Origin: Candidatus Heimdallarchaeota archaeon
GTDB taxonomy: Archaea; Asgardarchaeota; Heimdallarchaeia; Heimdallarchaeales; Heimdallarchaeaceae
Direction: 5' to 3'
Length of the DNA stretch: 11,327 nt
Assembly: GCA_018238545.1 (NCBI GenBank)
Contig: JABCTC010000070.1
Location: 1-11,327 of the forward strand
The notes below the pieces were generated by a model. That model was given only the letters and a program-made list of their open reading frames with translations, had not been told where the DNA came from and did not search any database. The first letter of the stretch is position 1. The number at the start of each line of letters is the position of its first letter. The translations under genes and the position numbers were made by a program. Shown here in pieces: positions 2,052 through 8,754 of the stretch.

Positions 2052-2152
2052 GTGAAAAAGCCCGGCTCTCGGTTTGAATATTGAAACTACGGCTGCTTTT
2101 CTTGGCGGTAAGGGAGGTATTCTGCGCCAAAAATTTCCCGAGCCATGACGAA
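2050..2152 (-). repeat. Cassette-separating repeat R1 (gene-3'-end-like element)
   Basis: + strand AATATTGAAACTACGGCTGCTTTTCTTGGCGGTAAG...GCCATGACGAA. Minus frame reads FVMAREIFGAEYLPYRQEKQP* (TAG at 2087-2089). Hairpin is decayed. Confidence 0.9.
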
Positions 2153-2211
2153 CTTCATCTAGTGATATAATTGAAATATAAAACCTGACAACTTACTTGG
2201 TGGGATGGACA

Positions 2212-2748
2212 ATGAAAAAGGCTGCAATTATCTATTGGACAAAAACTGGGAATACTAAGAAAGTCGCCGATGCAATCAAAGAAGGTCTCAAGGCTGTTGG
2301 CTTCGATGTATCCTATTTGAGAGTTGAAGAAGCTAAAGGTCTTGATTATTTTGATTATGATCTGGTATGCATAGGTTTTCCTTCATACGAATGGAGTACT
2401 CCTAGACCCATGACCATTTTTTTGAGAACCAACTTAGCTAAGCAAAGAAAAGAGGGACTGGTCAAAGCTAGTGCTCCAAAGGTTCCGGGAAAGAATGCAT
2501 TAATTTTCTGTACCTACTCGGGACCGCATACTGGAATCAACGAGGCTATTCCAGCAGGTCTGTACGCAGGTCAGTTCTTCGAGCATATTGGATTCACAGT
2601 TTTAGATGAATGGTATGTTCTAAGTGAATTCCATGGGCATGATAAAGCGAGTACAATAGGAAAAATGGGAGATATCAGAGGGAAACCAACTAAGGAGGAT
2701 TTGATGAAGATTAAGGAGGACACACTCAACCTCGCAAAAAGTCTTTGA
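2212..2748 (+). CDS. Flavodoxin-like protein
   Basis: N-terminal FMN-binding loop IIYWTKTGNTKKVADAI, plus YDLVCIGFPSY and ALIFCTYSG. ATG 2212 follows a GGTGGGA SD-like sequence. Confidence 0.9.
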   Translation: MKKAAIIYWTKTGNTKKVADAIKEGLKAVGFDVSYLRVEEAKGLDYFDYDLVCIGFPSYEWSTPRPMTIFLRTNLAKQRKEGLVKASAPKVPGKNALIFCTYSGPHTGINEAIPAGLYAGQFFEHIGFTVLDEWYVLSEFHGHDKASTIGKMGDIRGKPTKEDLMKIKEDTLNLAKSL

Positions 2749-2776
2749 TTTGAGGGGATTATTCTGAAAAAGTGAT

Positions 2777-2847
2777 GAGAGAGGAAGACCCTCTCTCGAT
2801 TTAATATTGAAACTATGACTGCTTCTCTTGGCGGTAAGAGAAGAACT
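2777..2847 (-). repeat. Cassette-separating repeat R2
   Basis: Hairpin GAGAGAGG-AAGAC-CCTCTCTC (2777-2797) and core CTTGGCGGTAAG (2827-2838). Minus frame reads EFFSYRQEKQS*FQY*. The first 37 bp are identical to R6. Confidence 0.92.
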
Positions 2848-2947
2848 CATCCTGTCATTTCTGCCAGAGTATGGAAAATCTTTTTCTTTGTTCACATCAT
2901 ATAGGTATCAACAGGTTAGCATGAACTCACATTGAGGAGGAGCTGAA

Positions 2948-4774
2948 TTGAGAGAAACGAAATTGAAACACACAAGGATAACAGCTGCAACTATAGCAGT
3001 GCTAATCCTTCTTAGTATGATCTTCGTGATGACACCTATTCAGGTGGTAGTAGCCGCTGAAAGTGAAATAATAGTCGCTACAGGTAACATATCCGACTAT
3101 ATCTGGTCTTCAGACGGAACCCGGGTGGCATATGTAGTGCGACCTGATGGGCAGTCATGGGGCGAGCTCTGGGTCGGTGACTGGAATGGGTACGAAGTGA
3201 CGAATCTTCAGTTGCTCTATTCAGAGATCGAAGCGGGTGGTCTGGAAGACTGGCAAGACGACTGGATACTTCTCAGAATACGGCATGAGAATGAGGATCC
3301 AGAAGAATACTACGGTCGAGGAGAGCTCTGGAAAATAAGAGATAATGGGACTGAACTCACTCAGATTACCTTCACCTATACTAATGGGATAAAAAATACT
3401 GAAAATGGGTACTATTATTTCAGAGGTTCCGCTGGTTGGGGTAGGTTCATTCCTGGAACTGACCTTGTATACTTCTCTGCTCATGATGGCAACGGTTGGT
3501 GGAAAGCATACACATGTCATGCTGATGGGTCTGATCAGTGGAAGCGGATCAGCGGGTCTACTTTTTCATTCACAATCGGTATGTCACCTACTGGCAACAA
3601 GCTAGTATGGGGTACGAGCTCGTATTGGGATGAGCCCACAACGCTCTTGTCGAGCAACATCGACGGTACAGAAACGATAACAATGAAGGCGTTCTCATAC
3701 AAGACAAGTCCCCTCGTGTTGGCAGATGGGGATACAGTCCTGTACAACAGCCCTAATGGTAATATCGGCGCAATCCAAGTGGATGGGACTGATGATCGAG
3801 TGGTAATTGATGACGAGTACTCCAATTACCTAGTTAATTACAATCCTGTTGATGGACAGTCGTTTCTAATGAGAAGTGATTGTAGTTCGGATGGCAATAA
3901 TCACATATTCAGTGTTGACGTTGATGGCACTAGCATTGTTCAGCTCACAGAAGGTCCGTACAATGATGACAGTGCGATGTATTCTCCCGATGGACACAAT
4001 ATCTTGTACAGGAGACTCCCTGCGAATTCAAACGGGACCTCCTATGAGCTGGTCATTATCCCCATTGGTAAACAGATTGAAGACCTGCCATCAGCTTCAA
4101 TTACTATGCTCCTCATAGATGAATCATCAAGTAATAATACAATTAACGCAACAATCACCATTGGTTTTTACTCCAACGGGAACAGTACGGGTATTGGTTT
4201 CCACCAGGAGCTGCTCAATATCTCCGCCGAATCTGATTATGTCCGACCAGTTGGGTTGGGATACGACGAAATGCGGGAGTATTCCATTTTCACCACTATA
4301 CACGGAAATGTGACTGTCAATACACTCAGTTCTGATGTAGTGAGCCATCGTCATTATGCGGCATGGACTGAATCAAAATGGTTTGGAACTTGGAACGGTC
4401 CTATCTCGGAGCAGAACATCTCTGAGGTCATACTCTGCGCTAACATCATCAAGTACGAGAACCTGAAAGTGTATTTCGAGGATGGAAGCTCCTTTGTGTG
4501 CGGTCCTCAATTCATTACATTGGCGGCTATCTTCACAAGAACTGGAGAAGTGTGGAACACAAGCTTCAATATCCACACCTCAGACTCTGAAGGAATCTCC
4601 ATTGACAATAATGTGGTGACAATCTCAATCAGATACCCCGAGTATGTTTCTCCGATTTTCTTTATCGCTACAATCACTATGGTTGCGGTAGTTGCAGTAG
4701 TCGCAGGGGCTCTATATCTAAAAAGTAGATTGGCCAAACCGGAATACCATGACGAGTATGTCACTTACTATTGA
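2948..4774 (+). CDS. Secreted, membrane-anchored TolB-like (PD40/WD40-like) beta-propeller protein
   Basis: Signal-peptide-like N-terminus; repeated WSSDGTRVAY / MSPTGNKLVW / YSPDGHNILY and DGT..TQ(I/L)T motifs; C-terminal TM helix with a short tail. GAGGAGG SD lies before the TTG start. Confidence 0.85.
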   Translation: MRETKLKHTRITAATIAVLILLSMIFVMTPIQVVVAAESEIIVATGNISDYIWSSDGTRVAYVVRPDGQSWGELWVGDWNGYEVTNLQLLYSEIEAGGLEDWQDDWILLRIRHENEDPEEYYGRGELWKIRDNGTELTQITFTYTNGIKNTENGYYYFRGSAGWGRFIPGTDLVYFSAHDGNGWWKAYTCHADGSDQWKRISGSTFSFTIGMSPTGNKLVWGTSSYWDEPTTLLSSNIDGTETITMKAFSYKTSPLVLADGDTVLYNSPNGNIGAIQVDGTDDRVVIDDEYSNYLVNYNPVDGQSFLMRSDCSSDGNNHIFSVDVDGTSIVQLTEGPYNDDSAMYSPDGHNILYRRLPANSNGTSYELVIIPIGKQIEDLPSASITMLLIDESSSNNTINATITIGFYSNGNSTGIGFHQELLNISAESDYVRPVGLGYDEMREYSIFTTIHGNVTVNTLSSDVVSHRHYAAWTESKWFGTWNGPISEQNISEVILCANIIKYENLKVYFEDGSSFVCGPQFITLAAIFTRTGEVWNTSFNIHTSDSEGISIDNNVVTISIRYPEYVSPIFFIATITMVAVVAVVAGALYLKSRLAKPEYHDEYVTYY

Positions 4775-4794
4775 ATGGTTGAGGAATAAAAAGA

Positions 4795-7599: not shown

Positions 7600-7820
7600 G
7601 CGGTAGCGACCTCGGCAACTAATTCTTCATCACGAAGCTTTACCAGGCGATTGAGATCTAGGTTCCTCTTTGAAAATGCAAGCACCTCAATCCCACAGAC
7701 CTCTCCCTTGGAATCATAATCGATGATAACTCCTTCAGATAGTTCAACACTCTCTGACACATCCTCTCCTTTCAGTCTGAAATAGATAGCATCTGCAACT
7801 TGATCATACTCGACTTGCAT
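7596..7820 (-). CDS. DUF2283 (YuzE-like) family protein, putative antitoxin partner
   Basis: YDQVADAIYFRL...GVIIDYDSKGEVCGIEVL signature; acidic protein; GAGGAG SD upstream. Confidence 0.88.
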   Translation of the reverse strand: MQVEYDQVADAIYFRLKGEDVSESVELSEGVIIDYDSKGEVCGIEVLAFSKRNLDLNRLVKLRDEELVAEVATA

Positions 7821-7946
7821 TGGACAATCTCCTCTTCATATCATTCTAGCAGTTATTCAGTAATATCTTCGTTGATAAATTTGCTCTCCTGTAAACTTCT
7901 AGCATTTGCTCAGTTATGCTTTCCGTTGAGTCTAAATGACTGTTTT

Positions 7947-8022
7947 TTAAATTAGAAACTTTGGCTGTTTCTCTTGGCGGTAAGGTAAGAACTCCGGACT
8001 GAATATCTCCCTGCCCGTGATA
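7947..8022 (-). repeat. Cassette-separating repeat R5 (hairpin missing)
   Basis: Core CTTGGCGGTAAG (7973-7984). Minus frame reads IITGREIFSPEFLPYRQEKQPKFLI*. Confidence 0.88.
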
Positions 8023-8087
8023 ATATCAGCTGACTGAAGCAACAATAGTGCTTTACTGATCATTATTGCCATAGATTCCGTTTCTGG

Positions 8088-8504
8088 TCAGGTTGGAGGC
8101 ACGTTAGAGTTGAAGCAATCGTATACTATCTTCCAAGAACCATCGGTTTGTTTTTTAAATAGGGTCAAGGCTTTCCCATCTGGCATAGCGCTAATCGTGT
8201 CGCCACCTGCCTTTGGAGTCAATTTCAATGTGTATTTGCATCGAGTTAATCCCAAGTCGCCATGCACTTCAACATCATCTACACTTTTGATGGCTATATC
8301 TAGCTTCATATCATCGAATACTGGTTTCATTCCATCTCGTATCTGCTCTTTCCCCTTTCTAACTGGACTGTCTGGTGGCATTTGTGTGCCTTCATCAGCC
8401 CATAGGGACATCCACAGGTCGAAATTACCTGTGTTGCAGCCTATAGCATATTGATTCAACATATCTTTAATCGCTGTGATGTCTTCCTTTCTCTCTTTTT
8501 CCAT
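8088..8504 (-). CDS. NTF2/SnoaL-like (DUF4440/YybH-type) protein
   Basis: LWADEGTQMPPDSPVRKGKEQIR, VEVHGDLG and GKALTLFKKQTDGSWKIVYDCFNS. GGAGTGA SD upstream. Confidence 0.9.
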   Translation of the reverse strand: MEKERKEDITAIKDMLNQYAIGCNTGNFDLWMSLWADEGTQMPPDSPVRKGKEQIRDGMKPVFDDMKLDIAIKSVDDVEVHGDLGLTRCKYTLKLTPKAGGDTISAMPDGKALTLFKKQTDGSWKIVYDCFNSNVPPT

Positions 8505-8669
8505 ATCCTGTTATCACTCCTTTTTGGAAGCCTGCCACTTCCAGCTGTATACACATGAATGATCTGATAAAAATCTTTCAGTAGTTGATTATAGCTCAGT
8601 TTCAACAAATTGACGTTTGTTGGATATATTAACCATCCAAAGATTGGTTGACTGGTAGAACGAGTAAAG

Positions 8670-8754
8670 GAGAGAGGAAGACCCTCTCTCGATTTAATAT
8701 TGAAACCATGGCTGCTTTTCTTGGCGGTAAGGAAGATATTCTGTTCTGAAAATC
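8670..8754 (-). repeat. Cassette-separating repeat R6
   Basis: Hairpin at 8670-8690 and core at 8720-8731. Minus frame reads IFRTEYLPYRQEKQPWFQY*. Begins immediately after the stop codon of the 8755-9132 gene. Confidence 0.92.

Follow-up and report, generated by a model that had tools for sequence, protein, structure and literature searches.

In fungal mitochondria, free-standing LAGLIDADG genes known as mORFs lie between the in-frame 3′ end of a gene and a diverged copy of this end that has been displaced, and such C-terminal duplications have been described at atp6 of Allomyces macrogynus, at atp6, atp9, cox2 and nad3 of Glomus and at rps3 of Ophiostoma (PMC3630166, PMC4019555). Variable cassettes stacked at a single site are known from the additive flexible genomic islands of Alteromonas, which occupy tRNA and tmRNA genes, carry a repeat of the target fragment downstream and include near-identical cassettes common to different species (PMC4898812). 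Similarly, integrons and CALINs, including archaeal ones, consist of rows of one-to-few-gene cassettes with a same-orientation repeat, compact junctions and toxin–antitoxin-like cassettes (PMC9668308). Here, we describe a cassette array in a stretch of 11,327 nucleotides (hereafter the window; contig JABCTC010000070.1 of assembly GCA_018238545.1, binned as Candidatus Heimdallarchaeota archaeon), in which the separating repeat corresponds to the closing ~22 codons, the stop and the terminator of one conserved ~412-aa acyl-CoA dehydrogenase (ACAD) of the Thorarchaeota. The array is an integron-like gene-collecting site, probably seeded by a homing endonuclease and not by an integrase.

The endonuclease-bearing units behind ACAD resemble mORFs in their intact in-frame upstream end, decaying copy and two acidic LAGLIDADG motifs, but they lie in an archaeal chromosome, the endonuclease is antisense to its target, one contig can hold up to ~15 copies, and most units hold unrelated cargo and no endonuclease. 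The arrays differ from additive islands in being anchored at the end of a protein gene, in their small size (median spacing 1.2 kb) and in that no integrase was found, and from integrons and CALINs in that the repeat is coding-derived and not a folded attC, the cargo lies on both strands, and there is no IntI and no attI. SCCmec also integrates at the 3′ end of a protein gene (rlmH/orfX), and such elements encode serine or tyrosine recombinases and duplicate <20 bp. The Thorarchaeota arrays share with them the tandem elements behind a housekeeping-gene 3′ end and the repeated target sequence, whereas their repeat measures ~70 bp plus terminator and no recombinase was found. What is new is the growth of an mORF-like duplication into an array of many cassettes on an archaeal chromosome. 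No published description of the array was found in the literature on Thorarchaeota, cassettes and endonucleases, within which subscription journals were mostly not covered.

The repeat derives from the 3′ end of an acyl-CoA dehydrogenase gene

A first-pass annotation, made from the letters of the window alone, had read the separator repeat as the C-terminus of a conserved protein and had expected the complete gene to lie on the minus strand, at higher coordinates than the array, in the native genome. A full-length protein with this ending does exist: a ~412-aa open reading frame (ORF), containing all three acyl-CoA dehydrogenase Pfam domains, ends in the repeat peptide and precedes the arrays in the predicted orientation, with the arrays extending downstream of it. 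Where the locus is assembled, most genomes have exactly one peptide match that terminates this ORF, and the identity of the target gene as ACAD is certain. The peptide profile matches 74 of the 87 genomes of the Thorarchaeota class, with up to 28 matches per genome, and a phylum-wide search with the profile matched 56 of the 63 genomes of one family and single genomes of two others. Repeats along the arrays are almost uniformly oriented (266 versus 1), and one contig holds up to 14 copies across ~31 kb.

All copies in the window lie on the minus strand. The peptides of R1, R2, R4, R5 and R6 are exactly as first read, as is the divergence between R1 and R4, which comprises six successive synonymous codon pairs, two more synonymous pairs and five amino-acid changes; by hand count, ~10 of the 16 base changes are synonymous, compared with ~24% expected (binomial p = 0.001). 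R1 (2087–2152) encodes the last 21 ACAD codons, FVMAREIFGAEYLPYRQEKQP, plus the stop, with a weak hairpin at 2059–2067. R2 (2777–2849) retains only the right half of the repeat, from position 33 of the repeat model (2813–2849), with a terminator-like hairpin at 2777–2797, and R3 (4797–4822) is a lone hairpin; the junction equivalent to R3 holds a right-half repeat in L009 and a repeat-like joint in public run X2. R4 (7255–7356) combines a full copy ending in KQM and stop (7291–7356) with a hairpin at 7255–7278, R5 (7959–8024) is a copy without stop or hairpin, and R6 (8670–8760) is a 5′-eroded copy (8706–8760) in which the stop TAG has become TGG, with a hairpin at 8670–8690. The hairpin said to follow the stop is present at R2, R4 and R6, weak at R1 and absent at R5. 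R1 and R4 fold no better than shuffled sequence, while R6 folds better with its terminator hairpin included. The window has no tRNA or Rfam match, and exact DNA patterns of the repeat returned zero matches in viral or metagenome contigs. The repeat consensus also contains an imperfect 12-6-12 dyad at model positions 16–45, over the codons R-E-I-F/G-P/E-Y-L-P.

The synonymous bias noticed between R1 and R4 holds at the codon level across 113 full copies from 55 sampled genomes: the ratio of non-synonymous to synonymous polymorphism (pN/pS) was 0.216 in the ACAD frame and 0.163 for native ACAD ends. Four other frames gave 1.2–2.5, and the antisense frame with common third positions gave 0.32. 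Protein-level selection, to which this divergence had been attributed, acts on the native gene and not on the copies. Internal stops occur in 14 of the 113 full copies, and the rare changes comprise 74 non-synonymous, 6 stop and 2 synonymous ones, a tally biased against synonymous changes since these count as common alleles. It follows that the coding signature was passed on from native genes, and that the copies are decaying. Native ends and copies have lineage-specific residues in common, for example E-C-L in G067 and K-Q-P in G040 and G041, so the copies have been refreshed. Copies vary less at third positions than native genes do (0.44 versus 0.59). The suggestion that the array is a chronological record of insertions found no support: repeats further from the gene are not more decayed than nearer ones (rho between decay and rank, −0.13 pooled, p = 0.25; −0.74 to +0.8 in individual arrays), and the array is therefore not a clean chronology.

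Copies share a 5′ edge and cassettes are exchanged within the repeat

Identity between copies and native genes stays at background up to position −6, is ragged from −5 to +1 at the Ile codon and is high thereafter. The copies thus have a common 5′ edge at the K-I-V-M codons, no copy reaching >6 bases upstream of the I codon. Sequence upstream of the edge contains no information shared among copies, and there is thus no attP-like arm. Of the same-strand cargo genes, 41% end no more than 13 nt from the edge, compared with 11% in control gaps (p = 6e-6).

Cassettes between copies have been swapped and lost among genomes and strains. Where homologous cassettes occur in other contexts, similarity breaks near model position 82 (window versus L010), 47 (window versus L079) or 33–36 (L108 versus L109), and crossovers cluster across the repeat at ~27–36, ~41–57 and ~67–110; truncated copies start or end around 27–36 and 42–57. 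Strain variants in public runs skip 2775–8669 or 7890–8672, or have the right half of R5 joined to the left half of R6 at 7985; these variants are assembled contigs at 92% likeness, and single joints may stem from related strains. Each cassette had been proposed to supply a replacement 3′ end. This fits the endonuclease-bearing first unit, but exchanges break at several points inside the repeat and not every cassette therefore carries a whole new end. One cassette lies between full repeats in L109; its ectopic counterpart in L108 (116–799) has half of a single repeat on either side, the break falling at model position ~33–36.

A homing endonuclease family lies at ACAD and near other duplicated gene ends

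A LAGLIDADG homing-endonuclease gene or remnant lies directly behind 10 of the 38 native ACAD genes, and G051 and G056 have one immediately following internal repeats. In four genomes (G067, G082, G100 and G099), the first unit behind ACAD is an antisense gene with helix-turn-helix (HTH) and LAGLIDADG domains, tail-to-tail with ACAD; a HerA/TraG-like ATPase often precedes genes of this type. The minimal unit, in G067, consists of ACAD end, endonuclease and repeat, and G082 has the same arrangement plus further cargo. In a tree of 27 members of the family, enzymes cluster according to their neighbouring gene, those linked to ACAD forming one clade (100/99) to which an enzyme at a PIN gene also belongs. 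The acidic residue is kept in both LAGLIDADG motifs of the ACAD-linked enzymes. Pfam, Atlas features and Foldseek all indicate LAGLIDADG enzymes; fold matches are weak (TM ~0.18) and the AlphaFold model has pLDDT <50 at residues 343–427, spanning the first nuclease motif, so the fold search lends weak support.

Sister clades of the endonuclease are found near duplicated termini of pycB, pccB, glyA and a PIN gene. In L164 (8031–10671) and L166 (3345–9069), the first 89 codons of pycB are present twice, on either side of a sister endonuclease, with the same break in the two genomes, and in L166 cargo also lies between the copies, a 5′-end version of the ACAD arrangement. We take this gene, named from its sequence, to be pyruvate-carboxylase/oxaloacetate-decarboxylase-like. 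Further 3′-end duplications with intervening genes near family members occur in L169 (3922–9342), L183 (360–6287), L175 (8135–12404), L178 (3171–4668) and L171 (914–2825); the genes concerned, likewise named from sequence, are pccB (with two displaced ends), glyA, a PIN gene, a 208-aa gene and a MazG-like gene.

Tyrosine recombinases (PF00589) were detected in only 29 of the 87 genomes and none lies beside ACAD, the nearest, in G122, being ~25 kb away from a cluster of repeats. Serine resolvases, large serine recombinases and Y1 transposases were each looked for in five genomes, array-rich ones for the latter two, and none occurred at an array. Within the limit that incomplete genomes set on this count, the PF00589 distribution suggests a class without universal XerA. 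We reject an Xer/dif (IMEX) reading of the repeat on the basis of the same distribution and of the varying third positions of the spacer.

A model for cassette capture and its alternatives

On balance, we lean towards a Thorarchaeota-specific capture array at the ACAD 3′ end, in which copies would be made by endonuclease cutting at K-I-V-M and cassettes shuffled by homologous recombination. The endonuclease would cut a sensitive ACAD allele near K-I-V-M, its presumed site, and the gene-side end would be repaired one-sidedly on donor DNA, acquiring another ACAD 3′ end and terminator together with the endonuclease and/or cargo that follow. The ragged shape of the 5′ edge is compatible with such a cut. 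The far end of the captured DNA would then be end-joined to the severed old 3′ end, which would become the repeat, with a new cargo junction. The ~70–110-bp copies would serve as homology handles at which RadA-type recombination could delete, insert or swap cassettes anywhere in the row, while the copies themselves would be untranslated and decaying and their hairpins would insulate cargo genes. It is conceivable, if rather doubtful, that the HTH–LAGLIDADG enzyme repeatedly reopens the native gene, and perhaps copies as well, at this one edge, with capture and trimming of foreign genes that need no integrase, and that the family duplicates termini at several Thorarchaeota housekeeping genes.

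Several observations sit uneasily with cutting and recombination at ACAD. Most cassettes, and the window itself, have no endonuclease remnant; mismatches to the putative site average 4.1 at endonuclease-adjacent native ends and 3.3 at others (p = 0.07), a slight excess and hence a weak signal of resistance; and copies are only weakly like the native end of their own genome. The tight spacing between genes and edge is more than random end-joining by itself accounts for. For pccB, the duplicate is found to one side of the endonuclease, and for glyA it is ~1.6 kb away, so their link to the enzymes is looser.

The spacing of genes against a fixed 5′ edge, the compact cassettes and the single orientation would be natural if a trans-acting site-specific recombinase integrated small circles at the ACAD 3′ end, with the endonuclease a frequent passenger. 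This would be a tandem att array comparable to tRNA-anchored additive islands. The 12-6-12 dyad and the ectopic cassette flanked by a split repeat also suit such a process, but no conserved arm exists upstream of the edge, the dyad spacer varies, breakpoints are scattered over the repeat, and within the genomes covered for each family, none of the tyrosine, serine and Y1 recombinases is universal or linked to the arrays. It would also leave the gene-end duplications near sister endonucleases unexplained, and we regard it as unlikely. Equally improbable in our view is an origin in one or a few old mORF insertions that founded the duplication, after which the array grew by homologous recombination and cargo-trimming deletions with no more cutting. 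Variable crossovers, strain-level cassette loss, the lack of a chronological gradient, the more uniform third positions of copies and the survival of a five-copy orphan array in G051, where no ACAD orthologue was found, are all compatible with this history. It is harder to reconcile with >100 unrelated cargo junctions within ~6 nt of one edge, with nothing shared upstream, and with the lineage-specific residues common to native ends and copies.

That copies persist because they are expressed as small peptides (M-A-R-E-I-F...), or because they fold into attC-like sites, is largely refuted and very improbable: in many copies an in-frame ATG does precede the stop by 19 codons, but many copies are truncated, stops interrupt 14 of the full copies and the rare changes are mostly non-synonymous, while the folding of R1 and R4 is no better than that of shuffled sequence, that of R6 includes the terminator hairpin and no Rfam family was matched.

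Cassettes and origin of the window

The repeats in the window separate a flavodoxin-like cassette on the plus strand (2161–2776; gene 2197–2748), which recurs at 95–98% identity in L009 and L010 with different neighbours, from a second plus-strand cassette (2850–4796; gene 2948–4774) encoding a 608-aa secreted beta-propeller-like protein. These are followed by a multi-gene cassette (4823–7254) for a 207-aa membrane protein, a flavodoxin-5, a 105-aa ORF and an HTH/FilR1-like regulator, and by a minus-strand DUF2283 and DUF4258 gene pair (7357–7958), presumably with a toxin–antitoxin-like role, next to which a repeat follows in at least five other genomes. A SnoaL/DUF4440 cassette (8025–8669, minus strand; gene 8088–8504) is missing from the strain variants, and a probable cassette encoding a 125-aa membrane protein (8755–9156, minus strand) is followed in public run X1 by a repeat-like hairpin at ~9172. 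The distal end of the array is a plus-strand DUF2196 (YwbE-like) gene (1788–2051), which holds the same place in L009 and adjoins a repeat in L079. Close homologues of a 78-aa ORF at 2–238 occur near repeats in L109, L154 and L080, and the array may therefore once have reached further left, past DUF2196.

Across the class, array cargo includes restriction–modification genes, toxin–antitoxin-like pairs, surface proteins and enzymes. Units of 13–15 kb lie behind ACAD in L054 (4014–17643), L062 (2255–13398) and L059 (743–15946), with type I restriction–modification-like subunits and a HerA/TraG-like ATPase; no integrase was seen in these units. The orphan array of G051, a single-contig genome, spans L045 10138–15208, with five copies and an endonuclease remnant.

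Within its own bin, the repeat is confined to the contig of the window, and neither an ACAD orthologue (best match 30%) nor an ACAD-linked type of endonuclease was found there; the repeat matched none of the 25 genomes of the bin's own family. Horizontal transfer is therefore less likely than mis-binning. GC content falls from 41% left of ~9160 to 29% right of it, and public contigs diverge on both sides of 9157–9195, marking a probable chimeric join at which depth in run X1 drops from ~13 to 4 and one contig runs on from 9172 into a repeat-like hairpin. The window is, we infer, a contig of a Thorarchaeote that was mis-binned and that is chimeric at its right end, near 9170, which accounts for the absence of the target gene from the bin. 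The last 180 bases (11147–11326) encode an EAL-domain fragment and are possibly a second foreign piece. Two Thorarchaeota metagenome-assembled genomes matched in a pattern scan have the flavodoxin, 608-aa, DUF4258/DUF2283 and DUF2196 genes in common with the window, at 79–98% identity and in other orders. The closest native genes (G040 and G041) share the K-Q-P-stop ending of R1, and a contig from run X2 joins G041-type native sequence to the repeat at 2836, so the population from which the window derives carries the native gene.

Implications

If the proposed model is true, Asgard archaea would possess an integrase-free route of programmed gene acquisition, and an archaeal system would be tied to the mORF behaviour of fungal mitochondria, with an enzyme–site pair that is directly testable. 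The ACAD locus is a class-wide hotspot for accessory genes in the Thorarchaeota.

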